From assembly GCA_016207065.1 (NCBI GenBank), contig JACQQK010000109.1, positions 1,666-65,665 of the forward strand: DNA of 64,000 nucleotides. Reading direction: 5' to 3'. The translations under genes were made by a program, and so were the position numbers. The notes under the pieces are model-generated. The model ran no database searches. It saw only the letters and a list, made by a program, of their open reading frames with translations, and had not been told where the DNA came from. Source of the stretch: Nitrospinota bacterium (GTDB lineage: Bacteria; Nitrospinota; Nitrospinia; Nitrospinales; JACRGP01). Positions within the stretch are counted from its first letter, which is position 1. Each line of letters begins with the position of its first letter. Shown here piece by piece: positions 9,978 through 31,190 of the stretch.

Positions 9978-10391
9978 ATGCAAGAAAAAAATTACGGAAC
10001 AGCAAAACATCTAGGGACCCGCTTGCGGGAGTGGAGGAAGACCCTGCACCTCAAGTCCTACGAGTTGGCGAAACTGATCCATATCTCTCAAGGATCGCTG
10101 TCGGACATCGAGAACAACAAGTCCCTTCCTTCCGCCGATACCATAGCCAAATTATATCAGCACACCCAGCTGAACATCATCTGGCTGTTGACTGGCAGAG
10201 GGCCGATGAACCGGGCCAAATCGGCCTCGGAAGAGGGGGACGCCGCGGGTTCGGAAGACCTTCTGCCGCGCGGACAGGACCCCACGCTCAAGGAACTGGT
10301 GGAAAAGGTCATCCGGATCTACCAACGCGGCGACCCCGAAAAGAAAGCCCATCTCAAGGGTTTCCTGTCGGGCGCCGATCCCGGATATTAA
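9978..10391 (+). CDS. XRE-family / phage CI-repressor-type HTH regulator (no peptidase domain)
   Basis: LREWRKTLHLKSYELAKLIHISQGSLSDIENNKSLPSADTIAKLYQHTQLNIIWLLTGRG. The NxxWLLTGxG ending is typical of CI-type HTH domains. Confidence 0.85.
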   Translation: MQEKNYGTAKHLGTRLREWRKTLHLKSYELAKLIHISQGSLSDIENNKSLPSADTIAKLYQHTQLNIIWLLTGRGPMNRAKSASEEGDAAGSEDLLPRGQDPTLKELVEKVIRIYQRGDPEKKAHLKGFLSGADPGY

Positions 10392-10399
10392 GCCTTCGT

Positions 10400-10784
10400 C
10401 GCGCCCGGCAAGGATTTCCCGAGGGCCGGATTATTTGTGTCCGGGCGGGCCTTCCCCCGATAATGCCCTCGACAGGTTACGCGCCTGGCGCGCCGGCCCG
10501 GTCCCCGTCTCCGTTTGGTTTGCCCATTCAGCCTCGCTTTATCCCCAATCCCCCAAATACGCCTCCGCCCTTTCCGCAACGAGACCTTGGCATATGCCGT
10601 ATTGTAGTTGCCTGATTCATCAGGCCAGCGTGACGCTGGACTCAAATAGGCTCGGCTCCGATGGCGAATGGGAGTCATCGGGGGCAATCCGGGCCTGGCC
10701 ATCCCGCTCCGGGGCGTTCCCCGGTCAAGGGAGGGGAGTAATTTGAGGGCCGAGCCAAAGGGTTCATTTTGTTAGACGCTCTTA
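10400..10784 (-). repeat. Mosaic repeat locus 2, ending in the terminus ...GTTAGACGCTCTTA
   Basis: 10625-10784 is a near-perfect reverse complement of 60853-61011. 10594-10622 (TTGTAGTTGCCTGATTCATCAGGC) shares a module with the MITE at 56455-56577. The terminal TTA is the stop codon (TAA) of gene 10782..12851. Confidence 0.9.
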
Positions 10785-12851
10785 TGGTTCTTCCTTGACC
10801 AGGGGTTCCCAGACGTAGGCGTTGAGTTTGCCTTTGCGGACCAGGAGCCAGGGCTTGTCGTTGTAGAGCGTCTCGGTGCGCTCGACCAGCAGGAGTTTCT
10901 CTCCCTTGTCCGCCGCGGCGAGTTGCGGCGACGCCGGGTCGGGAGACCTTTTCAGGACCACCCCGTCGATGCGCGGCACGACGTAGCGGGGTTTCGGTCC
11001 CGCCGACGTCCTCGACTCCGCTTTCGTTTCCGGTTGCGGCGGCCGGCCCGCAGGCGCCGGTTGCGCGGGCGGTCCGGGTTTTACCGGCTCCTTGACCGCC
11101 GGGAATTGGGGAAGAGCGACGCTTCTCTCCGCGGGCTCCGAGTCCCGCGGGGCCGGGGGCCCGGCCATGACGGGCTCCTGGGGTTTCGGCGCTTGCGGGG
11201 CGCTGGGTTCTTTCGGTTGGGGTATGCGCGGTTCCCCGGCGGGTTGTTCCGCTTGCAAGGGAGGAAGCTTCACGCTCAAGGTCTCCAGGGAGGCCACCTG
11301 CGGGGGCTTCTCGGAGAACCGCACGAAGACGGGATTGGACAAAAGGTATTGATTCGCGTCCAACTCGGCTTTCACGCGATAGAAGGCCCGCCCCTTGCGT
11401 ACCGCCTCTTCGTCCTTCCAGACCAACTCGAGCGGCAGGACGCCTCTTTCTTCCTTTACCAATTCGCCGTTGCGGACGATCGAGATTTTCACGGCCTTTC
11501 TGCTTTCCCGGGTCGAGCCGACCTTGACTTTCACTTCCGGCGCGTTGTTGGCGACGAGTTCTTCTCCCGGCAGGGCGGACGCCGCTCCGTCGGAGACCGA
11601 GAATTGGTCGAGGGACAATCGCTCTTCCGCGGCGGACTGGCGGACGGCGTACATCCTGCCATGGAGCATGGCGTCATGGACCGAGCGGACGGATTTGTCC
11701 CTGACCAGCAACACCGTCCGGACGCCGCCCAGGGTCCGGTCGTCCTGTCCCTCGCAGTGAAAGTCGTTCGAGCCATAAGCCCAGACCGGGTATTTTCTTT
11801 TCCCCTGGATGAACTGGACGAGCGCGCGGTCCCACTCGTTTCCGGGCTCCGCCGCCGGGACCGGCCGGTCGGACACGGCCTGGAAGCCGGTATAATTCTC
11901 GGTGAGCGTCAAGTCCTGGGGGTGGGGCGGGGTGTTGGTCCCGACCGATCCGGCGATGCCCGCGCCCGCTCCCGGTTCGAGCGAACTCCAGAAAACCATC
12001 GCCCCCCTGGACACGGCGTAATCGATCAGTTCCTGATAGGGCCCGGCGCCGCGGTCGCCATGGTACTGGTCGAACGGGGAACTGCGAAAGGGGTGATGGC
12101 TCAGCGCCAGGAGAAAGGCAAAAACGCACAAGGGGACGGTCAACTTGCGCGCCACGCGCTTGTAGACCATGCCCAGCAGGACCAGAAAAAGTACCGCGCA
12201 AAAGAAAAACTCGTTGACGAATTTCCGCGCGTACCTGCCGGAAAAGGGGCCGTTGAGAACAGGAAGCCGTTCGTAGTCCTCCGGCGTTTGCAGGCCCACC
12301 ACCAACAGCCGTTTGTCCCAGTTGTTGGCGACCAGGCTTTTATCGAACACGCTTCCCGTCCAGTAGTAGAAAGGCGCGCTGTCGACCGCCGGGACCATCA
12401 GCAGGTCCTTGAACTTGTTTTTATTCTGTTCGATCTCGGAGAGGTACCCCTCTGCGCCCAGGGAAAGAATGGAAGGCCCCGCGTCTTTTTTCTTGAAGAT
12501 CCGTTCCAGGGGCCAGATGCCGTATTCCAGCGACCTCTGGTCGTGGTCCCCGTATATGACCGCGTCGATCCCGCGATGCTGGGCGATGTTGCCCAACTCG
12601 CTCACGGTGGAGCAACCGTCGCTGAACCGGGTCTTGACTCCCACGACGGCGTCGATCGGCGCGTAGTCGGCGAACGCCGGGCCCTGCGGGGCCCCGCCCA
12701 AAACCAGGGCGGAACACAGGAACGCCGCCCGAACGGCGTCCGGCGTTTTTCGCGAAAGGGCCTTGAGACCGGCGCGGAGACACACGCGGGCTACGCTCAT
12801 CCAATTACCGGGCGAAGAGAGTTGCATAGAGAGTCCGTATGCGGATTTCAT
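10782..12851 (-). CDS. Membrane-anchored PHP-like (degenerate) domain protein with Pro-rich linker and SH3-like C-terminus
   Basis: VKTRFSDGCSTVSELGNIAQHRGIDAVIYGDHD resembles the PHP N-terminal motif but lacks the HxH. A two-helix hydrophobic insert (FFFCAVLFLVLLGMVY...LCVFAFLLALSHH) splits the domain. Then about 110 aa of P/A/Q-rich linker and a small C-terminal beta-rich domain. Confidence 0.55.
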   Translation of the reverse strand: MKSAYGLSMQLSSPGNWMSVARVCLRAGLKALSRKTPDAVRAAFLCSALVLGGAPQGPAFADYAPIDAVVGVKTRFSDGCSTVSELGNIAQHRGIDAVIYGDHDQRSLEYGIWPLERIFKKKDAGPSILSLGAEGYLSEIEQNKNKFKDLLMVPAVDSAPFYYWTGSVFDKSLVANNWDKRLLVVGLQTPEDYERLPVLNGPFSGRYARKFVNEFFFCAVLFLVLLGMVYKRVARKLTVPLCVFAFLLALSHHPFRSSPFDQYHGDRGAGPYQELIDYAVSRGAMVFWSSLEPGAGAGIAGSVGTNTPPHPQDLTLTENYTGFQAVSDRPVPAAEPGNEWDRALVQFIQGKRKYPVWAYGSNDFHCEGQDDRTLGGVRTVLLVRDKSVRSVHDAMLHGRMYAVRQSAAEERLSLDQFSVSDGAASALPGEELVANNAPEVKVKVGSTRESRKAVKISIVRNGELVKEERGVLPLELVWKDEEAVRKGRAFYRVKAELDANQYLLSNPVFVRFSEKPPQVASLETLSVKLPPLQAEQPAGEPRIPQPKEPSAPQAPKPQEPVMAGPPAPRDSEPAERSVALPQFPAVKEPVKPGPPAQPAPAGRPPQPETKAESRTSAGPKPRYVVPRIDGVVLKRSPDPASPQLAAADKGEKLLLVERTETLYNDKPWLLVRKGKLNAYVWEPLVKEEP

Positions 12852-19510: not shown

Positions 19511-20317
19511 TTGAAAAAACCAGATTATCCCCAACGGTTCAATAGAGAGGGAAATAATCCCCGCAGGTCCCAGCAAGGACAAGGACGGCCAAACCGTCCC
19601 GCGGGAGGCCCTCCTCAAAACCGGACGCAATCCCCGGGGCATGCCCAGGCCGTCCGGCTGTGGATGACCCCCTCGTCTCAAACCCTGACCTCCCACATCC
19701 CCATGATCAAAAAACGCATGCAGGACAATCCCGTCAAAAAGGCGGAGACGGCCAGCAACGGCGCCAACCCGTATGCGCACAAAAACAAAGGCAAGAACAA
19801 ACGCCCTTACGAGAAGTTCAGGCCGGATACGAGCAACGGAAGCCCGTTTAACAGGAACAAGCCGACTTACAAATCCCGCGAAGCCGAGGAGACGTTTGTC
19901 GAAAAGATCGAAAGCCAACCCGCGGTCCGGCAGGAACAAAGCGGAAACGGGACGGCGGCGGCCCTCCAGATCGACGCGTTCGAGTTATTCTGCGCCTACC
20001 ATCTGGGAATCGGCCCGAACAAAGAGTTCCGTCCGGCCAATATCCACGAGGTCGCCAAGCGCTTCGGCACCAACCCCGCCGTTATCCGCCAGTCGGTCAA
20101 GGACCACGCCATGGACGCGGAATCCCTTCTGAACCGGGACTTCGACATGGCCCTGGCCCAGTTGGACATTCAAGTGGCCCCCGAAGGGATCGACAAGACG
20201 GAACTGGCAAAGGGAATCTATCAGGAGTTTTTACAGGCCCCTCTCAAAAAGAGGGATTGGAAGAAGATCCTCGATGAGGACCGGCAGGAAAATATAAAAG
20301 TGTTCGGCAAAAACTGA
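19511..20317 (+). CDS. Hypothetical protein with basic disordered N-terminus and alpha-helical C-terminal domain
   Basis: Apparent TTG start with AAGGA upstream. The N-terminal 140 aa are R/K/Q/P/N-rich. The C-terminal 120 aa (QIDAFELFCAYHLGIGPNKEF...) look globular. No family recognised. Confidence 0.5.
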   Translation: MKKPDYPQRFNREGNNPRRSQQGQGRPNRPAGGPPQNRTQSPGHAQAVRLWMTPSSQTLTSHIPMIKKRMQDNPVKKAETASNGANPYAHKNKGKNKRPYEKFRPDTSNGSPFNRNKPTYKSREAEETFVEKIESQPAVRQEQSGNGTAAALQIDAFELFCAYHLGIGPNKEFRPANIHEVAKRFGTNPAVIRQSVKDHAMDAESLLNRDFDMALAQLDIQVAPEGIDKTELAKGIYQEFLQAPLKKRDWKKILDEDRQENIKVFGKN

Positions 20318-22090: not shown

Positions 22091-22245
22091 TTATCCTTAA
22101 CATGCAAAAGCGTTAAAAATGCCGCCTGTTTGATGCTCCGAGTAATAATTGGCAGGCCGGGCGAAATGTGCTATTTTATCCGCCATCCAGCGGAACTGTC
22201 CGCGGCGACACGCCGCCCGCATTAACCCTCAAACCATCGCCTTTT

Positions 22246-23259
22246 ATGAATTACGACCTGGTAGGCATCGGCAACGCATTGGTGGACATCGAAGTCCAAG
22301 TCGAGGACGATTTCCTGGAAAAGTTCTCCCTCGCGAAGGGAGGGATGACCCTGTCGACGGCGGAACATCAAGTCCGCGTCTTGAACTCCCTCGCCGGCCG
22401 CTCGATGAAGATTTCATCGGGAGGTTCGGCCGCCAACACCGTCCACGGCCTGCGCGTCCTCGGCGCCAAAACGTATTACCTGGGCCGGGTGGCCAACGAC
22501 GCCTACGGCCATCATTATACCGAGGACATGACCCTTTGCGGCGTGGGGTTCCCCGGCCCCGGAGCCGAGACGGAAGGGACCGGTTCCTGCCTGGTCATGA
22601 TCACCCCGGACACCGAACGCACCATGCTCACCCATCTCGGCGTGTCATCGGCCCTGCATCCCGACAACGTGGACGAGACCATCGTCGAGAACGGCCAGGC
22701 GGTCTATATCGAAGGCTATCTGTGGGCGGCGGAGGAAACGCGCCAGGCCGCCCTCAAGCTGGCCGAGATCGCCAAAAAGAAAGGCGTCAGCGTGGCATTC
22801 ACCTTGAGCGACGCTTTCATCGCCAACTCGTACAAGGAGAGCCTGATCGATTTCATCCGCTGGAACGCCGACATCCTGTTTTGCAACCACGCGGAGGCCC
22901 TGGCCTTGACGGACACAAAAGACCCGGAGTCGGCGTTCTCCATATTACAGGGGATGACCGACACCCTGTTTCTGACCGTGGGGAAAGACGGGGCCTGGGC
23001 GGGAAAAGACGGAGGGCCGAGGGTCCATGTCCCGGCCTTCCCCGTCAAGGCGGTGGACACCACCGGCGCGGGAGACCTGTTCGCCGCGGGCGCGCTGTTC
23101 GGGCTCATCAGGAACCATGGCTTGAAGGAATCGGCCGTCATCGGCTCCTATTGCGCCGCCCAGGTGGTGACGCATCTGGGCGCGCGGATGCCGGTCCACT
23201 CGCACGCCGACATCGGCAAGATCCTCAAAAGCCACGAGGAACTTTCCAGGAAACGGTAA
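22246..23259 (+). CDS. PfkB-family carbohydrate/nucleoside kinase (adenosine-kinase-like)
   Basis: MNYDLVGIGNALVDIEV... N-terminus and DTTGAGDLFAAG anion-hole motif. Start moved to the ATG at 22246. Confidence 0.85.
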   Translation: MNYDLVGIGNALVDIEVQVEDDFLEKFSLAKGGMTLSTAEHQVRVLNSLAGRSMKISSGGSAANTVHGLRVLGAKTYYLGRVANDAYGHHYTEDMTLCGVGFPGPGAETEGTGSCLVMITPDTERTMLTHLGVSSALHPDNVDETIVENGQAVYIEGYLWAAEETRQAALKLAEIAKKKGVSVAFTLSDAFIANSYKESLIDFIRWNADILFCNHAEALALTDTKDPESAFSILQGMTDTLFLTVGKDGAWAGKDGGPRVHVPAFPVKAVDTTGAGDLFAAGALFGLIRNHGLKESAVIGSYCAAQVVTHLGARMPVHSHADIGKILKSHEELSRKR

Positions 23260-23317
23260 AGCCTCCCGGAGCCATCGGCAATCCGCCACAATGGCCCGCG
23301 GGCATTCCCCGCGCTCT

Positions 23318-24334
23318 TTATTGCCCCTTGAACGTGACACGCAGGTATTTTATGAGGTCCGCGAAATCTTGCGGGGGAAAAGTGAGTCCCCAATCCGGCA
23401 TCGAGGGAGATTTGCCCACGCTTTTCCCGCCATGGTAGACCACGTTGTAGAGGTAATCCTCGGGCATCTCGCTCAGCGGCATTTTCGCGTGGACGGCCGG
23501 TTTCGGGTCCAGTCCCGCGGCCCCCGGCCCGTCGCCTTCGCCCTTGAACCCGTGGCACTGCGCGCAATAGGTCTTGTAGACGGCCGCGCCGCGCTCGGGG
23601 TCGGCCTTCTGGAAATACTCGCTCTTCCAGGGCTCGTAATACTTGTAGCCGTCGATGCCCAGCGTCATCAGGTAGCCCACGATATAACGCGCTCCCAGCG
23701 CGCTGAGGTCCGCGAGATATTCGCCGCTGTGCGGCGTGAAATCCTGCGGGTTCGCGGCGAACCGGTACAACCAGTCCGCGGTGTAGCGTTTCCCCGCGGA
23801 GTAAAGCGTCACGCTGATCGGCCCGCCGACTTTCTTGCCGTCTTCCATGATCTGGTGGCAACCGATGCAGGAGTATTTTTTGTAGATGTCGGCGCCGAAA
23901 CCCGCTTCCATCTCCGTGAACCTGGAAAGGTCGAGGGCGTTTTTTTGCACCCTGGGATCGCGGAAGTTCTTCTCCATGTAATCCGCTACCGCCTTGGCAT
24001 CGGATGAGGACAGGGCGGGGTGCTTGGAATCTTTCTTCTTGGAATCCCAGCGGTAACCGTTGGGATAGAGAGCTTCTTCTTTTCCCTCCAACCAGCGGAG
24101 CGCCCAGTCCCGTTGATATTTGACCCCGGACCACATCATGTCCGGGGCGTCGAGGGTGAACTTGGATTTCGGCGGGCCGGAGAACCGATGACAGTTCTCG
24201 CAAGTCTCCTTGACGATTTTCGCGGCCCGGCCCTCGTCGCTTGCGGACGCAAAACCGGCGAAGGAAAGAATCGAGAGGGCGGCAACAACGGCGGCGCACA
24301 ATATTCTTTTGATCGAGATTTTCAACGTATCCAT
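23318..24334 (-). CDS. Secreted triheme c-type cytochrome
   Basis: Signal peptide plus three CxxCH motifs (CENCH, CIGCH, CAQCH). Last gene of the cytochrome operon. Confidence 0.85.
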   Translation of the reverse strand: MDTLKISIKRILCAAVVAALSILSFAGFASASDEGRAAKIVKETCENCHRFSGPPKSKFTLDAPDMMWSGVKYQRDWALRWLEGKEEALYPNGYRWDSKKKDSKHPALSSSDAKAVADYMEKNFRDPRVQKNALDLSRFTEMEAGFGADIYKKYSCIGCHQIMEDGKKVGGPISVTLYSAGKRYTADWLYRFAANPQDFTPHSGEYLADLSALGARYIVGYLMTLGIDGYKYYEPWKSEYFQKADPERGAAVYKTYCAQCHGFKGEGDGPGAAGLDPKPAVHAKMPLSEMPEDYLYNVVYHGGKSVGKSPSMPDWGLTFPPQDFADLIKYLRVTFKGQ

Positions 24335-24376
24335 GGCGTAATCCCTCCCAAAATGTTTTTCAGGCCAGACAAGCGC

Positions 24377-24826
24377 TTACTCGATATTCAACGGGGCGAA
24401 CCGGCGCAAGTATAAAATCAACCGCCAGATTTCATTGTCGCTCAACGCGGCCTTGTGGGCGGGCATGGCCGTCCCCCGGGAGCCGTTTTTGACGATCCAG
24501 AACATCTGCCCGTCCGTGACGTCTTTCATGGTTTCCCGGCAAGTAAAGTTCCTTGGCGGGGGGACGAGCTTCTCCGCCAACCGCCCATTCCCGTCCCCGC
24601 GGAGCCCGTGACAAAGTTTGCACGGGGTCGGCCGGGCTTTCTCGAGATACAACTCCTTCCCCGCCGTTACGTTCCCGGGGGTCCGTGTCAGGGGATTTTG
24701 AGCGCGGGAATACCGCTCCGGAGCCTGGGCGGTATTTCTGGGCTGTGGACATATGCCCGCCGCCTCGACGGCGGGCGAACCGCCGATGACAAGGCAAAAA
24801 GCCGCCGTTGCCGCCCGCCGTTTCAT
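24377..24826 (-). CDS. Monoheme c-type cytochrome (paralog 1)
   Basis: Signal peptide, CKLCHG, and shared C-terminal motif PPPRNFTC..MKDVTDGQMFWIVKNGSRGTAMPA...EIWRLILYLR. Confidence 0.88.
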   Translation of the reverse strand: MKRRAATAAFCLVIGGSPAVEAAGICPQPRNTAQAPERYSRAQNPLTRTPGNVTAGKELYLEKARPTPCKLCHGLRGDGNGRLAEKLVPPPRNFTCRETMKDVTDGQMFWIVKNGSRGTAMPAHKAALSDNEIWRLILYLRRFAPLNIE

Positions 24827-25416
24827 TGCGCGTTAGACAATCCCCGCAGATACAAGACCAATTCCCAGATCTCGTTGTCGTCCAGGAACTTGTAGGACGG
24901 CATGCCGGTCGCCAGGGAACCGTTCTTGATGGTCCAGAACATCTGCCCGTCGGAAACCTCCTTCATGGTCTCCGCGCAGTTGAAGTTGCGGGGTATCGCG
25001 GCGAGTCCCTGGGCCATCATGCCCATGCCGTTGCCGGAGGCGCCGTGACAGATTTTGCAGGCGGTGGGTTGCGCCTGCGCCTGGAACAGAGATTCCCCCT
25101 TCGTCAAGTTCTCCGCGGTGGGTTGCAAAGGGTTGGCCTTGTCGAGATACTCCCTGGGAGCCTGCGGGACGGTGCGCGTCTGCGGGCATAGGCCCTTGCC
25201 CCCCCGGCCCATCCCGTGATGCAACGAGTGGCGGTCGCCATGGTGCGGCCGGCCCTCGTGCATGGCCAGCGTGACGCTAGACTCATTACCGCCCCGGCGC
25301 CAGCGTGGGGCGGCGTCGCCCCCGGCGGCCAGCGCGACGGGTGGAAAGGAACCCCAGCAAAAAAATAAAAACGCCAGGCAACCGGCGGCGGCGTATGGAC
25401 ATGCTCGTTTCGTCAT
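24823..25416 (-). CDS. Monoheme c-type cytochrome (paralog 2) with His-rich linker containing an in-frame repeat element
   Basis: SD GAGGAA upstream of the ATG, signal peptide, CKICHG and the same C-terminal motif. Its stop overlaps the next gene's start (ATGA). Confidence 0.88.
   Translation of the reverse strand: MTKRACPYAAAGCLAFLFFCWGSFPPVALAAGGDAAPRWRRGGNESSVTLAMHEGRPHHGDRHSLHHGMGRGGKGLCPQTRTVPQAPREYLDKANPLQPTAENLTKGESLFQAQAQPTACKICHGASGNGMGMMAQGLAAIPRNFNCAETMKEVSDGQMFWTIKNGSLATGMPSYKFLDDNEIWELVLYLRGLSNAQ
25264..25330. repeat. Copy of the dispersed hairpin modules (CCAGCGTGACGCT.GACTC + TTACCGCCCCGGCGC.AGCG.GGGGCGGCGTCGCC) inside a CDS
   Basis: Aligns with 10625-10643, 4547-4582, 12991-13025 and 61104-61140. 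Translated in-frame as GGDAAPRWRRGGNESSVTLA within cytochrome 24823..25416. Confidence 0.85.
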
Positions 25417-25418
25417 TT

Positions 25419-26012
25419 CTATTCCTCAATGTGTCTTATATAGAGGACCAACTGCCAGATCTGGTCGTCCTCCAGGTTTTTATAGGCCGGCATGTCCGTT
25501 CCCGGAGAGCCGTTTTGAATGATCCAGAACATCTGTCCGTCGGGAATTTTTTTCATCGTCACGTAACAGGTGAAGTTCCTGGGCTGGGGCGTGGTCTGCT
25601 TGAACATGAGTCCCAGGCCATTGCCCGTCAGACCGTGGCAGATTCTGCACGGGGTCGGCCGGGTGTCGAAATGAAACAGGGTCTTGCCGGCGAGAATATT
25701 TCTTTCGCTCGGCTCCAGCGGGTTTTTCATGGTGTAATAGGGATCGGGAGCCTGCGGGGTCCGGCGCGGCTGGGGGCATAACCCGGATATTTCCGGCCCG
25801 CCCTCGTTCAAAGACGGCTCTCCCTTGTGCGCGGCAACCGGCCCGTTTTCATGGCCGGGCGGCGAACTCCTCGGCCCGTCTTGAGCGCTCGCCGGAGACT
25901 TTGCCGGCTCCGCGAAAACGGGACCGGAAAACCAGCAAACCGCCGTCGCGCAAAGGAAACCGGCGGCCATCGGTAAAAAGACGCTCCATAATCTCGAATG
26001 AACGCCGTTCAT
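25419..26012 (-). CDS. Monoheme c-type cytochrome (paralog 3)
   Basis: SD GGGAGGG, signal peptide, CRICHG, and shared motif PQPRNFTC..MKKIPDGQMFWIIQNGSPGTDMPA. Confidence 0.88.
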   Translation of the reverse strand: MNGVHSRLWSVFLPMAAGFLCATAVCWFSGPVFAEPAKSPASAQDGPRSSPPGHENGPVAAHKGEPSLNEGGPEISGLCPQPRRTPQAPDPYYTMKNPLEPSERNILAGKTLFHFDTRPTPCRICHGLTGNGLGLMFKQTTPQPRNFTCYVTMKKIPDGQMFWIIQNGSPGTDMPAYKNLEDDQIWQLVLYIRHIEE

Positions 26013-26052
26013 CGCAAACCCTCCCGCATGAAGTTGCCTGCATTAAAACCGA

Positions 26053-27051
26053 TCAGGGGAGATCGGGCAAAACGACGACGATGGGATCGCCTTCCAGCGC
26101 TTTCAGGAATTCCACCAAGTCCTTTTTCTCCGCGTCCGCCAGGCCCAGCGGGGCCATGAAAGCGCTCTTGTTTTTCGCTTCGCCCCCGCCGCGGTTGTAA
26201 AAATCGACGACCGCCTCGAGCGTCGGCTCGCTCCCGTCGTGCATGTACGGGGCGTTCCTTGTCACATGACGCAGGCCGGGAGTCTTGAAGGCCCCCCTGT
26301 CGTTCTCGTCCTTGGTCACGTTGTAGCGCCCGAGGTCCTCCTTCAACGGCCCCGCTTGTTTCACGCCCAGGTTGTGGAACTGGCTGTCGGTGAACGCCGG
26401 ACCGTTGTGGCAGATGGAGCACTTGGCCTTCCCGAAGAACAGCCCCATCCCCTTGACGGCGGAGGCGGACATGGCCTTCTTGTCGCCTTTCCAGTACTTG
26501 TCGTAGGGAGAATTTTTCGAAACCACGGCGCGTTCGTACGTGGCGATGGCCCTGGCGATGTTTTCGGAGGAGATCCCCGATTCGCCAAAAACTTTTTTGA
26601 ACATGTGGACGTAGCCGGAGACCGCTTTCAGTTCCTTGACCAGGTCGCCGAGGGGCTGGTTCATCTCGCCCGCCGCCTGGATGGGGCCGAGGGCCTGTTC
26701 CTCCAGCGTTTTGGCCCGGCCGTCCCAGAACTGCGACTCGAAATACCCGCTGTTGACGATCGTAGGCGTGTGACGTCCAAGCTCCTTCTGGCCGTTGCCC
26801 AAGGCCCTCGGCAAGCCGTCGCCGAAACCGAGGCCGGGGTTGTGGCACGTGGCGCAACTGATCCAGTTGCTCCCGGACAAGCGCGGATCGAAATAAAGGG
26901 CCTTGCCCAACTCCTCCTTGTCCTTCGACCAGGGGTTGTCCGCCGGGTGTTTCATTTCCGGGAGCGGCTGGTAAAAAGACTCTTCGGCCGGGGCCTGACC
27001 GGCAAGCAGGAATGAAACCAGGAACGCAAATAGAGTGGTCGCTATCTTCAT
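26053..27051 (-). CDS. Di-heme cytochrome c peroxidase (CCP/MauG family)
   Basis: Signal peptide, CATCHNPGLGFGDG and CSICHNGPAFTD heme motifs, ...TPGLRHVTRNAPYMHDGS..., 332 aa. Confidence 0.92.
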   Translation of the reverse strand: MKIATTLFAFLVSFLLAGQAPAEESFYQPLPEMKHPADNPWSKDKEELGKALYFDPRLSGSNWISCATCHNPGLGFGDGLPRALGNGQKELGRHTPTIVNSGYFESQFWDGRAKTLEEQALGPIQAAGEMNQPLGDLVKELKAVSGYVHMFKKVFGESGISSENIARAIATYERAVVSKNSPYDKYWKGDKKAMSASAVKGMGLFFGKAKCSICHNGPAFTDSQFHNLGVKQAGPLKEDLGRYNVTKDENDRGAFKTPGLRHVTRNAPYMHDGSEPTLEAVVDFYNRGGGEAKNKSAFMAPLGLADAEKKDLVEFLKALEGDPIVVVLPDLP

Positions 27052-27093
27052 GGGGCGCTCTCCTTCACTTGGAACGGTTGCTCGATTACCGCT

Positions 27094-28302
27094 TTAAAAA
27101 GCCAGGACAAACCCCGCTACCCCCGTATGGGTTTCTTGCGGATGGTTGAAACTTGTTTCTTGCAGGTCGCCGGTGACCTCGAACATGACTTTAAAGTTGC
27201 GCATGATGTAATAGGAGATATTGCCGGTCAACGTTTCCGCGTTCAATACCGGTCTCCCATAAACGCGCGCGTTGTTGTACAAAACCGACAGGATCCAATC
27301 CTCCTTGAACGGATAGGTCACGCCGCCCAAGGCGCCCCAGGAATCGACCCGCCGCGGGACGGAGGCGGAAAAGCCGGGATTGTCGTCCTCCCCGATCAGG
27401 AAATTGCCCCAGACTTTGAAGTCGCTGAACAGGGTGAAAGTGAAATCCGGCCCGGCGCGAAAAAATTCGTTGCGGACGTTGGCGGCGTTGTTCTCGCGCC
27501 CGCTGTAGCCGTAGAACCCGACCCGTTGTTCTCCATATCCCGCCAGAATCCTGCCGTAGAAGTCTTTAAAATTGTCCGAATCGAAGTTCCGGTCGCTGTT
27601 GGCGACGCCGATGCCGTTGCCGTTGACCGCCGCTCCCCAGATCCCCAGGGACAGGTCCGCGGCGGCGGCGAAATTATAGGATATCTCCGCGATCCGGTCG
27701 TAGGTGAGCCGGAACCCGCTGTCGCTGATCGCGGTGACGTAATAAGTGAAGTCCTGAAACGTCAGACGGTGCTCCCGGGGAAAAACGATGTCCATCAACT
27801 GGAACTGGCCCACGCGGACATCCAGGTCGGCGTTTTTGTAGATGTTGTTGAAGTACAGGAAAGCGTCCTCCACGCCGGCAATGTCCCCGTTCTCGGCGGC
27901 CAAGAAAGTAAAATAATAGGCGATGTCTTTTTTCAACGGGGCTCCGGATATGATTTTGATAAGCGACGGGGCCTCCAAATCCGTGTGCGTCCGGGTGTCG
28001 GCGCGGGCCCGGAAGAACGATTCCGCGCGCACCGCCAGGGGAAGGGACGGCAGGAGCAACAGCTTTTCGTCGCCCACCTTGGCCCCATGGGCGGCCATGT
28101 CCTCGTCGGGAAGCTGGTAGCCGTTGGCCGCGAATTGTTCTCCGAAACCGTTGAGCTTCGGGAATCCGACGTGGCATACCACGCAACTCAGGTTATATCT
28201 GCGCGCGAAAGCCGGGATCGCCTCGGCAACTTCCGTAGTTGCGGCAAACAGCAAGAGCGCTAATAAAGTCAAAACAAAAAAAGCGGTTTTACGGCTTGTC
28301 AT
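27094..28302 (-). CDS. Fused monoheme cytochrome c / outer-membrane beta-barrel porin (Cyc2/Cyt572-like architecture)
   Basis: Start at ATG 28302 (GGGAGAG upstream). Signal peptide MTSRKTAFFVLTLLALLLFAATTEVAEA. Single CVVCH 12 residues into the mature protein. About 360 aa of alternating aromatic/Gly-rich strands, and an OMP-type C-terminus GVAGFVLAF. Confidence 0.7.
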   Translation of the reverse strand: MTSRKTAFFVLTLLALLLFAATTEVAEAIPAFARRYNLSCVVCHVGFPKLNGFGEQFAANGYQLPDEDMAAHGAKVGDEKLLLLPSLPLAVRAESFFRARADTRTHTDLEAPSLIKIISGAPLKKDIAYYFTFLAAENGDIAGVEDAFLYFNNIYKNADLDVRVGQFQLMDIVFPREHRLTFQDFTYYVTAISDSGFRLTYDRIAEISYNFAAAADLSLGIWGAAVNGNGIGVANSDRNFDSDNFKDFYGRILAGYGEQRVGFYGYSGRENNAANVRNEFFRAGPDFTFTLFSDFKVWGNFLIGEDDNPGFSASVPRRVDSWGALGGVTYPFKEDWILSVLYNNARVYGRPVLNAETLTGNISYYIMRNFKVMFEVTGDLQETSFNHPQETHTGVAGFVLAF

Positions 28303-28319
28303 GTCTCTCCCTGTTCTAG

Positions 28320-28757
28320 TCATTTCCCCGCGAAGGCGCGGATAAATTGAATCGCGTTCCAGCCTTCCTCCTCGGTGATGGCCGTGCCCACCCGGACCGG
28401 CATGCCCGTCCCCGGGCTTCCGTTTCTCAGGACCCACATGAGTTCCCCATCGGTCCGTAGTTTCTGCCATTTCCCGTCGGTGAAATCCCGCGGGGCGTGT
28501 CCCGGAAAAACGGCGCCCTTGCCGTCCATGCCGTGACAGGTCACGCACAGCCCTTTCCCGAAATAGATTTTCCGGCCCTCCTCGGTCCGTTCCGGAGTCG
28601 CGGGGAAGGGGCTTTCCATTTCCTGGACTTGTTCAAGTATTTCCCTTGGGACCCGCGGCTCGTAGACGTCTTTGTGGAACGCCCACGCCTCCCCCGCGGC
28701 TAAAACAAGGGAAACCGCCAAAGCGGCCGTTAATTTTTTATCGACTCGATCAAGCAT
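28320..28757 (-). CDS. Monoheme c-type cytochrome (paralog 4)
   Basis: Start at ATG 28757 (MLDRVDKKLTAALAVSLVLAAGEAWA signal). CVTCHG and motif DGELMWVLRNGSPGTGMPV shared with the three tandem paralogs. Confidence 0.85.
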   Translation of the reverse strand: MLDRVDKKLTAALAVSLVLAAGEAWAFHKDVYEPRVPREILEQVQEMESPFPATPERTEEGRKIYFGKGLCVTCHGMDGKGAVFPGHAPRDFTDGKWQKLRTDGELMWVLRNGSPGTGMPVRVGTAITEEEGWNAIQFIRAFAGK

Positions 28758-28833
28758 GGGAACGCCAAGCGCCAGGGGACGAGGCAATTCCGCGTCCCCT
28801 GGCAAGAGCGGTTCGATCGCAACCGGCGGCCGG

Positions 28834-29436
28834 TTACTTCTTTTTCTTCTCCATCGGTTTGTCCATGGGCTTCTCCATGGGTTTGCCCTTGGCGCTTTCG
28901 GCGATCTCCTTGCCGATTTTACCATGCAGGGATTCCCAATGGCCAACGGACTGGGCGATGCCCACCGTGCCGTCGGGGATGGGCGCGTCCTTCGGCCACA
29001 AGTGAAAAATGATGCCGTCGGTATTCGACACGTGGTCCGCCAGGCTCTTTTGCTCCTTGGGGTCGGAGGGGTTCATGATGACGACGCGTCCGGTCGCGAT
29101 CTCGGCCTGGTGGTCATGCCAGTTCTGCATGTGGGACCACTTGGGGATGACCGAACGGGCGAGCTTCTTGGAGACCATGTATTCCACCTCGGTCATGCGG
29201 GCGTTGGGCTCCGTGGACTCGAACAGGATGCATTGGATGATGTCGTCGTTGATCGGTTTGCAATAATGATGGAAGGGGCCCATGATCTCGCCGTCCATGA
29301 CGTGGGGGGCGGTGACGTGGATGGTGTAACCGCTCAAGGGGTTCGGGGGGACGTCGCCGGCAAAGGCGGGAGCTACCAGGAAACCAACCAGGAGCAGAGC
29401 GGACATGAACAGCCGGGCAATCTGTTTCGCGAGCAT
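28834..29436 (-). CDS. Secreted DUF1264-family protein with Met/Lys-rich C-terminal repeats
   Basis: SD AGGAGA and a signal peptide. ...GPFHHYCKPINDDIIQCILFESTEPNARMTEVEYMVS...WHDHQ... matches my memory of the DUF1264 (OBAP-like) core. The tail is KGKPMEKPMDKPMEKKKK. Confidence 0.65.
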   Translation of the reverse strand: MLAKQIARLFMSALLLVGFLVAPAFAGDVPPNPLSGYTIHVTAPHVMDGEIMGPFHHYCKPINDDIIQCILFESTEPNARMTEVEYMVSKKLARSVIPKWSHMQNWHDHQAEIATGRVVIMNPSDPKEQKSLADHVSNTDGIIFHLWPKDAPIPDGTVGIAQSVGHWESLHGKIGKEIAESAKGKPMEKPMDKPMEKKKK

Positions 29437-29598
29437 AACGTTTCTCCTCTGGGAAAAGGGATTTTTAACTTGTGGATCGCTGGCAACAACAATTGTCCCA
29501 GGACATTTTCCTTTTCAAAACATTTTCGCCGCGACGCTTTTCATGCCGTGAAAGCGCCGGGCCCGGATTCACGCCAAAAACTCGGAAGAATACTATAT

Positions 29599-29714
29599 GG
29601 GCATCTCTAAAAATTGCTTTTTCTCGAATCCAACCGTTCCTGAAAAAGTTGTAGTTGCCCAATTTATTGGGCTTTTGGAGCGCCTGATGAATCTACAATT
29701 TTTAGAGATGCTCC
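29599..29714 (+). mobile_element. MITE-like element, copy 1 (terminal inverted repeats GGGCATCTCTAAAAA / TTTTTAGAGATGCTCC)
   Basis: 116 bp flanked on both sides by CTATAT (candidate target-site duplication). The reverse complement of 56455-56577 aligns along the whole length. Confidence 0.8.
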
Positions 29715-29846
29715 TATATGATAAAGGGTATCGGGGAGGTTACAACAACTTTTTTTTCGCGAAAAAAACGGGGACCGCCGATCGCGGATTCCAAAGGCGG
29801 TTTTCCCGGACGAGGGAATGCGGGCGCGGGTCTTTTATGGAAACGT

Positions 29847-30542: not shown

Positions 30543-31190
30543 ATGACGCCCGCCGTTGTTCCGCGGACCTGGTTTCGTCCCGCCGTTTTCGCGTTCGTTT
30601 TCGCCTGTCTTTTGGCGGGCGCCGCTTGGGCGGCGCCCAAGGACAAGGAGCGCTGGGATTCCAAGTACAACCTGGACGTTTATCTTTTCGGCAAGGAGCC
30701 AACGCCCTTCCTGAAACAGAATGCCGGCCTGCTTCCCAAGGGAAAAGCCCTGGACATCGCGATGGGCGAGGGGCGCAACGGAGTCTTCCTTGCCACGCAA
30801 GGTTTTGAAGCGCTCGGGCTGGACATCTCCGAGGTCGGACTGCGCAAGGCCCATGAACTCGCCAGGGAAAAGAACGTCAAGATCGAGACCCGCGTCGTCG
30901 ATCTGGAGAGCGTCAAATTGGAAAAGAACGCCTACGACGTGGTCCTGTGCATGTACTACCTGCAAAGAGACCTGTTCCCCCAGATCAAGGACGCGTTGAG
31001 GAGCGGCGGAATGGCGGTGGTCGAGACCTACAACCCGGACTATCGCAAATACAACCCCAAGTTCCCCAGGCAATACCTCCTTGAAACCAACGAACTGCTG
31101 GAAATCTTCAAGGACTTCAAGATCGTCCGGTATCAAGCCTACGACGACGGCAAGGAAGCCTACTCCAGCATCATCGCGCAGAAACCCTGA
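30543..31190 (+). CDS. Class I SAM-dependent methyltransferase (TehB-like) with an apparent N-terminal signal-like segment
   Basis: KALDIAMGEGRNGVFLATQGFEALGLDIS (motif I). The first ~30 aa are hydrophobic (FAFVFACLLAGAAWAAP). The start is uncertain, with an in-frame TTG inside that segment. Confidence 0.75.
   Translation: MTPAVVPRTWFRPAVFAFVFACLLAGAAWAAPKDKERWDSKYNLDVYLFGKEPTPFLKQNAGLLPKGKALDIAMGEGRNGVFLATQGFEALGLDISEVGLRKAHELAREKNVKIETRVVDLESVKLEKNAYDVVLCMYYLQRDLFPQIKDALRSGGMAVVETYNPDYRKYNPKFPRQYLLETNELLEIFKDFKIVRYQAYDDGKEAYSSIIAQKP

Follow-up and report, generated by a model that had tools for sequence, protein, structure and literature searches.

A modular c-type cytochrome island with a Cyc2-family cytochrome-porin in Nitrospinia: a putative periplasmic electron-distribution system

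Fused cytochrome-porins of the Cyc2 family (Cyc2 of A. ferrooxidans, Cyc2PV-1 of Mariprofundus, Cyt572 of Leptospirillum) consist of a signal peptide and about 400 residues predicted to form a 16-strand porin, have one CxxCH, some 14 residues from the mature N-terminus, and are accompanied by an adjoining periplasmic cytochrome partner. Published sequence criteria for the family are AxPxFAR[Q/K][T/Y] five residues before the CxxCH and PxL four residues after it (Keffer 2021). All three biochemically tested members are Fe(II) oxidisers, additional functions are allowed for, and the function of the Cluster 3 proteins is rated most uncertain (Keffer et al.). In Leptospirillum the electrons of Fe(II) go from Cyt572 to Cyt579, encoded by unclustered genes. 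MtoAB, MtrAB and PCC likewise combine an outer-membrane barrel with c-type heme to pass electrons across the outer membrane, but as separate porin and deca- or dodecaheme proteins that reach solids. On the periplasmic side, di-heme cytochrome c peroxidases (CCPs; Geobacter MacA and CcpA, the Nitrosomonas and Pseudomonas enzymes) are supplied with electrons by small monoheme cytochromes, and the ncgABC-nirK clusters of nitrifiers encode the diheme NcgB and the monoheme NcgC. Cyc2-like genes of Nitrospinaceae have already been published in FeGenie surveys, which entered as Cyc2-like, among others, proteins from the Dive96 and OFTM MAGs that belong to the family of the cytochrome-porin described here. 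The eight-gene cluster itself is unpublished. An earlier note had not recognised the combination of Cyc2-like protein, CCP, carriers and DUF1264 as a described system, and no paper on this combination was found in a literature search.

Anatomy of the cluster

The window, i.e. the whole 64-kb stretch of DNA analysed, contains eight ORFs on the minus strand between 29436 and 23318 (g1 to g8 in order of transcription, Table 1), separated in this order by 76, 17, 42, 40, 2, -4 and 42 nt, as the earlier note had read them. Its count of 10 CxxCH motifs in seven proteins was reproduced as well (0, 1, 1, 2, 1, 1, 1 and 3 for g1 to g8), and since the remaining called ORFs of the window hold a single further CxxCH, this density is far above chance. 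Read by eye, all eight N-termini have the basic head, hydrophobic core and AxA-type site of signal peptides. Pfam/NCBIfam profile searches returned matches for all products except g3, which was assigned by the Cyc2 criteria and structure prediction, and the gene identifications proposed earlier all proved right. The GC content of the cluster resembles that of the rest of the window.

Table 1. Features of the cluster and its flanks (positions in the window; gene coordinates with the start chosen behind each signal peptide)
Feature	Position	Strand	Evidence
Lcl_C (DUF1566) domain protein, secreted, 180 aa	29847..30389	-	Pfam PF07603, E 9e-23
Upstream intergenic region, likely promoter/5' leader of the cluster	29437..29846	-	sigma-70-like site and inverted repeats
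g1, secreted DUF1264/OBAP-family protein, 200 aa	28834..29436	-	PF06884, E 6e-22; KPMEKPMDKPMEKKKK tail
g2, periplasmic monoheme class-I cytochrome c, Cyt579-like, 145 aa	28320..28757	-	NF033864 cytochrome 579, E 5e-24
g3, cytochrome-porin, Cyc2-family fused monoheme, 402 aa	27094..28302	-	signal peptide, AIPAFARRYNLSCVVCHVGFPKL, predicted 16-strand barrel, C-terminal Phe
g4, di-heme bacterial cytochrome c peroxidase, 332 aa	26053..27051	-	PF03150 CCP_MauG, 190 bits, E 4e-56
g5, monoheme cytochrome c, 197 aa, long low-complexity linker	25419..26012	-	Pfam Cytochrom_C/CBB3; NF033864, E 2e-10
g6, monoheme cytochrome c, 197 aa, His-rich linker (MHEGRPHHGDRHSLHHG)	24823..25416	-	Pfam/NCBIfam class-I cytochrome c
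g7, monoheme cytochrome c, 149 aa	24377..24826	-	Pfam/NCBIfam class-I cytochrome c; start overlaps g6 stop by 4 nt
g8, triheme cytochrome c, 338 aa	23318..24334	-	Pfam/NCBIfam; last domain class-I cytochrome c
GC-rich hairpin between convergent g8 and pfkB ends, candidate terminator	23297..23313	.	CGCGGGCATTCCCCGCG, then T-rich tail on + strand
pfkB kinase gene, convergent, downstream boundary	22168..23259	+	

The eight genes probably form one transcription unit. Upstream, a gap of 410 nt separates them from the Lcl_C gene on the same strand. An ortholog of this gene (58-67% identity) directly precedes the cluster in L001, L002, L004, L011, L081, L084, L085 and L096. The gap contains one sigma-70-like site (29745-29718, 9/12 matches) and short inverted repeats, e.g. 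GCCCAAT/ATTGGGC at 29657-29672; comparison with relatives revealed no conserved motif in it and an Rfam search gave no match. The enrichment of terminator-like sites overall was not significant (19 versus 12.5 +/- 4.2).

The cytochrome-porin and its putative partners

By published sequence criteria and structure prediction g3 is a Cyc2-family cytochrome-porin, as the earlier note had proposed. It is identical in length and sequence to the database protein P0001, has no Pfam family and no sequence match in the PDB, and shares with the Cyc2 family the signal peptide, the position of the single CxxCH, the length, the predicted 16-strand porin and the neighbouring periplasmic cytochrome. Its motif, AIPAFARRYNLS-CVVCH-VGF-PKL, has AxPxFAR..Y five residues before the CxxCH and PxL after it, deviating from the published consensus in having Arg for Gln/Lys. 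The AF2 model (pTM 0.73) contains 16 strands, and Foldseek matched it to 16-strand porins with E of about 1e-11 (OmpF, OmpU, Omp32, PorB). The heme motif is kept in 117 of 120 homologs, the three exceptions being N-terminally truncated. The motif is of the FARKY type, which places g3 with the Cyt572-like Cluster 3, the one of least certain function; a text degraded by optical character recognition gives this form within Cluster III for Cyt572 of Leptospirillum, for Nitrospira and for Tenderia, whereas FeOB of Clusters I and II have FARQT. The bacterium that carries g3, a member of the Nitrospinota, has no known iron oxidation, and the role of g3 as Fe(II) oxidase is putative. As one polypeptide with one heme it would, unlike MtoAB, MtrAB and PCC, be limited to dissolved species, as predicted by Keffer et al. 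Outside Nitrospinota a protein with four to five hemes is encoded directly upstream of the g3-family gene in 56 of 80 loci, and such a different periplasmic cytochrome beside the gene is what would be expected if the porin depends on a redox partner in the periplasm. Twelve other Cyc2-like genes of Nitrospinota stand in unrelated contexts that lack DUF1264 and an upstream g2-type cytochrome; in one of them (L007) a single monoheme cytochrome follows the Cyc2-like gene.

The small cytochromes suggest with which partners g3 might work. The cytochrome 579 model NF033864 is matched by g2 and g5-g7 with E between 5e-24 and 2e-10, although their 41-85 bits (85 for g2) stay far under the equivalog cut-off of 280. 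With Cyt579-like carriers, the analogy to the Leptospirillum chain drawn in the earlier note is more than a guess: the first two steps, an outer-membrane Cyc2-type cytochrome-porin and soluble Cyt579-like monohemes, are common to both, but here the genes are adjacent, a peroxidase and DUF1264 are added and the organism is not an acidophile. The carriers had been taken for four paralogs. This holds for g5-g7, a tandem family with 49-56% mutual identity (g5 to g6 and g7, 49-55%), but g2 is a separate kind (29-33% identity to g5-g7) that travels with DUF1264 and finds its best PDB matches in the Kuenenia cytochromes 6h5l and 5mxy.

The peroxidase g4 shares with characterised di-heme CCPs the two CxxCH motifs, the inter-heme Trp (QFWDGRA) and small monoheme cytochromes as putative electron donors, and aligns with them over the full length (MacA 4aal, E 3e-62; CcpA, NeCCP and PaCCP, about 1e-55). 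Assignment as MauG was rejected in favour of a true bacterial peroxidase, the MauG match reaching only 1e-20. In MacA the distal His93 locks the resting peroxidatic heme, whereas g4 has Asn at this position, which suggests an enzyme that does not need reductive activation. Unlike known CCPs, g4 is encoded directly beside an outer-membrane cytochrome-porin. In g8, the first two hemes lie in NcgB-like domains (the second SoxX-like) and the third in a class-I, NcgC-like domain. A Nitrotoga cluster resembling ncgABC-nirK has a diheme gene, with which the first two domains align at 26% identity, and next to it a monoheme gene, with which the third aligns at 36%. Here, however, both parts are fused in one protein, and neither a multicopper oxidase nor NirK is encoded near g8.

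The secreted DUF1264 protein g1 has eleven residues that are invariant across 34 homologs (H40, H45, H57, C59, C69, E85, H107, D108, H109, E112, H145), and the cluster of His, Asp and Glu among them is a probable metal site. Its AF2 model (pLDDT 86) found no fold match in the PDB. Homologs in Nitrospinota and Nitrotoga are 72-78% identical. The pair of DUF1264 and g2-type cytochrome recurs in Nitrotoga (78% and 69% identity), and the two genes also adjoin in Nitrospira and in a gammaproteobacterial MAG; the closest relatives of the pair belong to other nitrite oxidisers.

Constant and variable parts of the island in relatives

Nine loci, the window included, carry the island at one SBF/TehB/Lcl_C chromosomal site, their hosts including the cultured Ca. 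Nitrohelix vancouverensis and a Nitrospina sp. (L096). All nine have Lcl_C and the g2-type cytochrome, and the tandem monohemes are present wherever the contig reaches, whereas DUF1264, Cyc2, peroxidase and triheme cytochrome are variable. Because eight of the nine loci were located through Cyc2, the apparent constancy of this gene reflects ascertainment bias. The synteny that the earlier note had suggested examining is thus found, albeit with modular content, the CCP being present in four of eight assessable loci (it is absent from cultured Nitrohelix) and the triheme gene in three of seven. Nor is the locus built around the porin, as the note had described it, since L096 contains DUF1264, cytochromes, CCP and triheme with no Cyc2-like gene within 7 kb. 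Orthologs of g8 are widespread in Nitrospinota, yet the island includes one in just three loci, those of the window, L001 and L096; in the Nitrohelix genome the gene lies elsewhere. The g4 ortholog (69-75% identity) is preceded directly by Cyc2 in L081 and L084, and in L096 by a gene for an MBL-rhodanese. In all, three lineages have a CCP ortholog next to Cyc2 on its 3' side, at 70-75% identity. Such MBL-rhodanese insertions occur in L004, L011 and L096, and the number of monohemes varies, but the order g2, Cyc2, CCP, monohemes is conserved.

A putative electron-distribution island and its alternatives

How might these proteins work together? With moderate confidence we favour a periplasmic electron-distribution island into which a Cyc2-type entry, probably for Fe2+, and an H2O2-reducing exit can be plugged. 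The cluster would encode a wholly extracytoplasmic c-type cytochrome network, the constant part of which (secreted Lcl_C, one Cyt579-like cytochrome and a tandem array of two to six paralogous monohemes), joined in most loci by the His-rich DUF1264 protein that accompanies g2, may make up a periplasmic pool of soluble carriers, each for one electron. Redox proteins that vary between loci would plug into this pool: g3 in the outer membrane would most likely accept electrons one at a time from a donor dissolved outside the cell, for which Fe2+ is the best-supported candidate, and pass them to the periplasmic cytochromes, g4 would empty the pool onto H2O2, and g8 probably joins it to other partners, e.g. 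terminal oxidases encoded elsewhere. Electrons would then run from an extracellular metal to H2O2, as the earlier note had considered possible.

It could also be imagined, though we consider it rather unlikely, that the island primarily serves periplasmic defence against peroxide, perhaps also superoxide or NOx, its cytochromes supplying CCP, and possibly DUF1264, with electrons from the respiratory chain of the cell itself (e.g. from cytochrome c reduced by NXR), with the porin as an optional add-on of minor or unrelated role. The Cyc2-free island of L096 would suit such a function, as would a Nitrospira defluvii MAG that has no Cyc2 but encodes a CCP (54% identity), a g2-like cytochrome and DUF1264 in two copies, a distant DUF1264 copy surrounded in L089 by general-stress genes (CsbD, BON, ferritin/Dps), and the lack of catalase and superoxide dismutase in cultured Nitrospinae, whose superoxide handling the literature leaves unexplained. 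Yet half of the assessable loci do without the CCP, and defence explains neither the heme-bearing outer-membrane porin that in eight lineages separates g2 from the carriers nor the three to six tandem carriers for one peroxidase. DUF1264 is not known to have an activity, and its model has no fold relative.

Still less probable is that the tandem monohemes are the main respiratory carriers of nitrite oxidisers, between periplasmic NXR and terminal oxidase, without a dedicated Cyc2-to-CCP pathway, the remaining genes being unrelated periplasmic proteins gathered at a recombination-prone site. According to the literature nitrite-oxidising Nitrospinia do send NXR electrons via cytochrome c directly to the terminal oxidase, and both the nitrite-oxidising relatives of the DUF1264/g2 pair and the very variable cargo are in line with it; however, the maintained gene order, the CCP right behind Cyc2 in three lineages and the fact that all cargo but MBL-rhodanese are secreted redox proteins are not what random accretion predicts. 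Least probable of all appears a porin working outward, from the pool to Mn(IV) or Fe(III), or serving Mn2+, Cu+, reduced sulfur or humics instead of Fe2+. At neutral pH, class-I cytochromes of high potential donate electrons poorly to Fe(III) oxides, the locus lacks a multiheme wire, and the tested Cyc2 proteins oxidise Fe(II). On the other side stand the abundance of the g3 family in Ignavibacteria and Melioribacter, Calditrichota and Zixibacteria, where it is paired with a multiheme cytochrome, the latitude left by Keffer et al. and the proposal in the literature of Cyc2 as a candidate for Mn(II) oxidation in Ca. Manganitrophaceae.

The cytochrome island is a conserved but modular feature of the class Nitrospinia, and its persistence without Cyc2 in L096 suggests that the cytochrome pool of the proposed electron-distribution system would have a job independent of the porin.

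Anatomy of the cluster and its cytochrome-porin

Eight co-directional genes, g1 to g8, occupy positions 23318-29436 on the minus strand, and the gaps between them (76, 17, 42, 40, 2, -4 and 42 nt from g1 to g8) confirm the spacing from a 4-nt overlap to about 76 nt that was described in the earlier note; start codons are those opening each signal peptide. Ten CxxCH motifs are distributed over seven of the proteins, as had been counted before (0, 1, 1, 2, 1, 1, 1 and 3 from g1 to g8), and the remaining ORFs called in the 64-kb window contain one such motif in all. A signal peptide had been claimed for every product, and Sec-like signal peptides are indeed recognizable by eye at 8/8 N-termini.

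Genes of the cluster, their positions in the window and the lengths of their products
Gene	Product	Position	Strand	Length (aa)
g1	DUF1264 protein	29436-28834	minus	200
g2	cytochrome c	28757-28320	minus	145
g3	cytochrome-porin	28302-27094	minus	402
g4	di-heme cytochrome c peroxidase (CCP)	27051-26053	minus	332
g5	monoheme cytochrome c	26012-25419	minus	197
g6	monoheme cytochrome c	25416-24823	minus	197
g7	monoheme cytochrome c	24826-24377	minus	149
g8	triheme cytochrome c	24334-23318	minus	338

At the g8 end the cluster is bordered by a convergent pfkB kinase gene, and 410 nt upstream of g1 lies an Lcl_C gene on the same strand; the rest of the window holds housekeeping and polysaccharide genes, and neither NXR nor a terminal oxidase is encoded in the 64 kb. 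GC and GC3 of the cluster match those of the neighbourhood, which rules out a horizontal-transfer island by composition. A scan of the whole window against Rfam yielded no match, the regions upstream of DUF1264 aligned from six loci share no motif, and the inverted repeats of the 410-nt leader are short and not conserved elsewhere. The terminator scan found no strong terminator inside the cluster, and counts of terminator-like sites were not above those in shuffled sequences; promoter-like sites exceed shuffles (7 vs 1.9 ± 1.5), a single one of them being located in the leader with 9/12 matches. Divergent beside the Lcl_C gene and syntenic with an SBF gene, a TehB-like SAM methyltransferase is encoded at 30543-31190 (plus strand), whose N-terminus resembles a signal peptide (…FAFVFACLLAGAAWAAP…), which is odd for a SAM-dependent enzyme. 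Between the genes for oligoendopeptidase F and PBP4, an ORF of 268 aa (19511-20317, plus strand) has no Pfam match and a low-complexity N-terminal half rich in Gln, Pro, Arg and Asn.

Members of the Cyc2 family are recognized by a signal peptide and one CxxCH, the motif AxPxFAR[Q/K][T/Y] with FAR five residues before CxxCH, PxL four residues past it, a length of at least 365 aa and a 16-stranded porin (Keffer et al. 2021, PMC8406198). In g3, the signal peptide MTSRKTAFFVLTLLALLLFAATTEVAEA is followed by IPAF...CVVCH with a single CxxCH at residue 40, and from the cleavage site after AEA onward (IPAFARRYNLSCVVCHVGFPKL) all Cyc2 elements are in register: A-I-P-A-F-A-R-R-Y, NLS and CVVCH follow each other with exact spacing, the sole deviation being Arg at the [Q/K] position, where the family majority reads FARKY or FARRY, and in CVVCH-VGF-PKL all of 39 sequences share P48 and nearly all share L50. 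An AlphaFold2 (AF2) model built from 39 sequences (pLDDT 74.8, pTM 0.73) displays 16 strands over residues 89-401 of the 402-residue protein, with low confidence for the cytochrome domain, as expected for a domain modelled without heme. Foldseek matches this model to the 16-stranded general porins OmpU, OmpF, Omp32 and PorB (E ~1e-11), and g3 itself has no sequence match in Pfam, NCBIfam or the PDB. Outer-membrane barrels usually have a C-terminal Phe, and the last residue of g3 is Phe. The protein is 100% identical to HY579_07620 of a 'Nitrospinae bacterium' MAG. Since CxxCH is present in 117 of the 120 best g3 homologs and the other three are N-terminally truncated gene calls, the objection that homologs of the barrel protein might generally lack the heme motif falls.

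Relatives of g3 from the Dive96 and OFTM MAG sets occur among the loci of our family scan, and a published FeGenie survey reports Cyc2-like genes in both sets; its supplement names the Dive96 MAGs one by one, and the OFTM match holds at the level of Nitrospinaceae MAGs only. In the OCR-degraded supplement the N-terminal motif FARQT marks the iron oxidisers of Clusters I/II and FARKY marks Cluster III, including Leptospirillum Cyt572, Nitrospira defluvii and Tenderia. From motif type alone, g3 is of the FARKY kind and a putative Cluster III type, the cluster whose Cyc2 function is the least certain (Keffer et al., PMC8406198).

Conservation and modularity of the island

Scanning with the family alignment, one genome per species, gave 80 loci. 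With tblastn using the window proteins, annotated contexts of further homologs and a second round of tblastn, eight loci found through Cyc2 turned out to contain the same island, namely the window, L001 (CG11_56_8), L002, L004, L011, L081, L084 and L085. L085 belongs to Ca. Nitrohelix vancouverensis, a nitrite oxidiser enriched from the sea whose genome is closed, and its island has Cyc2 but no CCP. The order is SBF and TehB-like methyltransferase genes (both on the opposite strand), Lcl_C, optionally DUF1264, a g2-type cytochrome, the Cyc2-like gene, optionally a CCP, two to six monohemes and optionally a triheme cytochrome, and in most of the eight loci ABC-F (opposite strand) and EF-P come next. 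L084 has the layout of the window minus the triheme gene, and in L081 and L084 CCP orthologs of 70-75% identity directly follow Cyc2. With eight syntenic loci, the possibility that the arrangement is not conserved in relatives is therefore discarded.

Because all eight loci were found through Cyc2, which introduces an ascertainment bias, two contexts of g8 homologs were examined in addition. In an unclassified Nitrospina (L096, GCA_052156615.1) the island runs from Lcl_C through DUF1264 (74% identity), g2 (61%), a fusion of metallo-beta-lactamase and rhodanese (MBL-rhodanese) and CCP (69%) to a pair of monohemes, and then on to the triheme (59%) and a further monoheme; no Cyc2-like gene is found within 7 kb. 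Over the nine loci, Lcl_C and g2 are always present, DUF1264 in 7/9 and MBL-rhodanese in 3/9, CCP and triheme in 4/8 and 3/7 assessable loci, respectively, and tandem monohemes in 8/8 loci whose contig runs past Cyc2; Cyc2 itself is present in 8/9, the sole unbiased sample being without it. The earlier proposal of a cluster built around the porin thus has to be given up, as L096 keeps DUF1264, cytochromes, CCP and triheme without Cyc2, and this locus shows that the periplasmic pool works without the porin. A metagenome scan with a single protein returned only three loci, none of them with the island. The MBL-rhodanese fusion (~470 aa, no signal peptide) follows g2 and is placed before Cyc2 in L004 (3613-5085) and L011 (8031-9446) and before CCP in L096 (3321-4733); its domain pair is that of persulfide-dioxygenase-type enzymes.

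Twelve other Nitrospinota Cyc2-like genes reside in contexts different from the island, and in several of them a heme-less ~260-aa protein follows. A Nitrospinaceae set (L005, L006, L008, L009, L010 and L013) is ~52% identical to g3, with L013 at 58% in the same context; the trailing ~260-aa protein of this set (e.g. L005:5076-5867) is secreted and has a weak C-terminal SHOCT match, and no cytochromes are found near these genes. In L006 (9437-9961), L008 and L012 a ~174-aa protein without Pfam match precedes the Cyc2-like gene. Moreover, in 56/80 loci, none of them from Nitrospinota, a c554/c7-like (Pfam) cytochrome of ~450 aa with four to five CxxCH motifs lies directly upstream of the Cyc2-like gene (e.g. 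L080:8639-9985, before the Cyc2-like gene at 9998-11182). This cytochrome, seen in Ignavibacteria, Bacteroidota, Zixibacteria, Calditrichota, KSB1 and Krumholzibacteria (L016-L080), is apparently a different, fixed partner of the Cyc2-like family. A periplasmic cytochrome neighbour is a recurring companion of this porin family, and the partner differs by lineage.

Peroxidase, carriers and the DUF1264 protein

The CCP/MauG-family identity proposed for g4 holds (PF03150, 190 bits vs a cut-off of 25.6; heme motifs CATCH and CSICH) and could be narrowed to CCP, not MauG. The protein aligns over its full length to Geobacter MacA (E 3e-62), to CcpA and to the CCPs of Nitrosomonas and Pseudomonas, with E values of 3e-62 to 6e-52 for CCP structures vs about 1e-20 to 5e-20 for MauG, and it contains the inter-heme Trp motif QFWDGRA; judged by its sequence, g4 truly belongs to the bacterial di-heme cytochrome c peroxidases. 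Assignment as MauG (TIGR03791, 289.6 bits, cut-off 443.85) was rejected, CCP structures being far closer, as was MbnH (TIGR04039, 223.2 bits, cut-off 362.85), and no mau or mbn genes are found near g4. Some active CCPs do not use a distal His ligand. In Geobacter MacA the distal His93 ligates the resting peroxidatic heme, and at this position, which was located in the peroxidatic heme loop by comparing structure 4aal with its mutant 4aao, in which the residue is changed, g4 has Asn, while its orthologs have His (L081), Asn (L084) or Val (L088). With Asn in place of His93, g4 may need no reductive activation.

According to Pfam, g2 and g5-g7 are class-I cytochromes c. The NCBIfam model NF033864 for cytochrome 579 is matched by nearly the full length of g2 with 85 bits (E 5e-24; positions 5-138 of the 179 in the model) and by g5-g7 with 41-52 bits (E about 1e-10 to 1e-14). 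All four fall well short of the 280-bit equivalog cut-off and are best described as Cyt579 homologs, similar in kind and not to be filed as Cyt579. The solved structures nearest to g2 are the Kuenenia cytochromes 6h5l and 5mxy, of which 5mxy was reported as the structure closest to Cyt579. Since g5-g7 are 49-56% identical among themselves but only 29-33% to g2, two kinds of carriers have to be distinguished within the four paralogous carriers of the earlier note. In g5 and g6 linkers of 50-70 residues separate the signal peptide from the heme domain, that of g6 being His-rich (MHEGRPHHGDRHSLHHG). Common to g5-g7 are two conserved cysteines, one within the motif G[LI]CPQ[PT]R and the other within NF[TN]C, which suggest a putative disulfide; a lipoprotein site at the Cys of GLCPQPR was ruled out by eye, as residues -3 to -1 are unlike a lipobox.

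The triheme cytochrome g8 consists of three heme domains, the second SoxX-like and the third class I (Pfam/NCBIfam). NcgA is reportedly a multicopper oxidase, and NcgB and NcgC are cytochromes (Beaumont et al. 2005). g8 aligns with two neighbouring genes, for a diheme and a monoheme cytochrome, in a Nitrotoga ncgABC-nirK-like cluster, a cluster type described previously (PMC5080386). In Ca. Nitrohelix vancouverensis a g8 ortholog (L095:5837-8014, 64% identity) lies outside the island, directly after two Sulf_transp (YeeE/YedE-like) genes, and Nitrospinota commonly encode ~470-aa versions of g8 that have additional heme domains.

The first gene, g1, encodes a DUF1264/OBAP protein (PF06884, 78.5 bits vs a gathering score of 25). 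Invariant in 34 homologs are H40, H45, H57, C59, C69, E85, H107, D108, H109, E112 and H145, which look like a predicted metal site plus a disulfide. The AF2 model is confident (pLDDT 86); Foldseek found no fold relative for it in the PDB (best E 0.2, TM < 0.3), and the PDB sequence search gave nothing meaningful. The C-terminal tails of DUF1264 proteins are hypervariable (alignment A2), with KPMEKPMDKPMEKKKK in the window, a long His/Asp-rich tail in Nitrotoga sp. M5 (HHESSHDHGANHDHDHGANHDHDHGANH) and a shared ...L.K.GI.E..G.. in several Nitrospinota.

Outside Nitrospinota the closest named DUF1264, with 78% identity to g1, is that of Ca. Nitrotoga fabula (L087:4401-13720, CAJNBL010000005.1), where a g2-type cytochrome (69%) comes next; this pair is located directly after genes for a two-domain multicopper oxidase, a diheme, a monoheme and a NirK-like protein (ncgABC-nirK layout) and directly before cusBA-like copper efflux genes. 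Such identity across phyla implies that DUF1264 and g2 would have moved horizontally as a pair. A Nitrospira defluvii MAG (L088:1880-4689) encodes, in this order, a CCP with 54% identity to g4, two DUF1264 proteins in tandem and a g2-like cytochrome, and is a second lineage that joins these three components; its 8.6-kb contig contains no Cyc2-like gene. In a gammaproteobacterial MAG the DUF1264 and g2-type pair stands alone. More distant DUF1264 genes, also found in Marinimicrobia, have no cytochrome neighbour, which weakens the notion of a family specific to nitrite-oxidising bacteria; DUF1264 thus extends beyond nitrite oxidisers. Apart from the island, the pair of DUF1264 and cytochrome is itself an uncharacterised lead.

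Possible electron routes and their meaning for nitrite oxidisers

How could electrons pass through such an assembly? We see about even chances that it is a periplasmic electron-distribution island, in which a pool of Cyt579-like one-electron carriers serves exchangeable inputs and outputs; its anatomy is solid, and its direction, donor and co-transcription are what we infer. On the input side g3, as an outer-membrane Cyc2-type cytochrome-porin, would most likely oxidise dissolved Fe2+, because of analogy to three tested Cyc2 family members (PMC8406198) and to the Leptospirillum chain leading from Cyt572 to Cyt579, whose genes are not clustered in that organism whereas their counterparts are adjacent in the window. 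As one output the peroxidase g4 would reduce H2O2, and g8 would probably connect the pool to partners encoded elsewhere. The main rival holds that the cluster is a peroxide or oxidative-stress unit supplied by the cell's own respiratory chain, for which the loci without Cyc2 speak as well as the literature on cultured Nitrospinae, which lack catalase and superoxide dismutase; four island loci have no CCP, however, and we consider this rival possible but somewhat doubtful.

It is unlikely that general respiratory carriers merely accompany unrelated cargo at a variable site, and very unlikely that electrons flow outward or that the substrate is something other than iron. It could also be imagined, although we judge it improbable, that nitrite oxidisers possess an unrecognised extracytoplasmic redox system in which DUF1264 would be a new His-ligated periplasmic metalloenzyme with its own Cyt579-like cytochrome, a pair mobile among Nitrospinota, Nitrotoga and Nitrospira that may fill a gap in the superoxide/NOx defence of Nitrospinae devoid of catalase and SOD, and in which Cyc2 at the same time would draw electrons from dissolved Fe(II) to H2O2 or O2. 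If this joint reading were true, these bacteria would oxidise iron facultatively and in doing so would clear the two Fenton reagents together.

Among the known nitrite oxidisers of the ocean Nitrospinota are the principal group; they are also found in iron-bearing groundwater and have been treated as metabolically narrow. Cyc2-like genes in Nitrospinae/Nitrospinaceae bins have been noted in survey papers since 2019, and Cyc2 homologs were also recorded in nitrifying Nitrospirales; the main text of a comparative-genomics paper on 98 Nitrospinota genomes mentions neither Cyc2 nor porin nor peroxidase. Literature searches on Cyc2 together with cytochrome c peroxidase and on DUF1264 yielded no description of the cluster, in agreement with the earlier note, which did not recognise the combination as a described system. 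Known already are thus the Cyc2-like genes of Nitrospinaceae, and new is that a proposed Cyc2/Cyt579-type conduit shares a conserved, modular island of nitrite-oxidiser lineages with a peroxidase and a DUF1264 protein that is uncharacterised. FeGenie-type Cyc2 matches occur in these lineages in at least two contexts, and in some genomes the surrounding cytochromes function without Cyc2; iron oxidation should therefore not be deduced from a cyc2 match by itself. As Ca. Nitrohelix vancouverensis, a cultured enrichment, carries the island and a Nitrospina sp. its Cyc2-less form, two questions become testable in existing cultures, whether Fe(II) is an alternative donor of nitrite oxidisers and how they survive peroxide without catalase.
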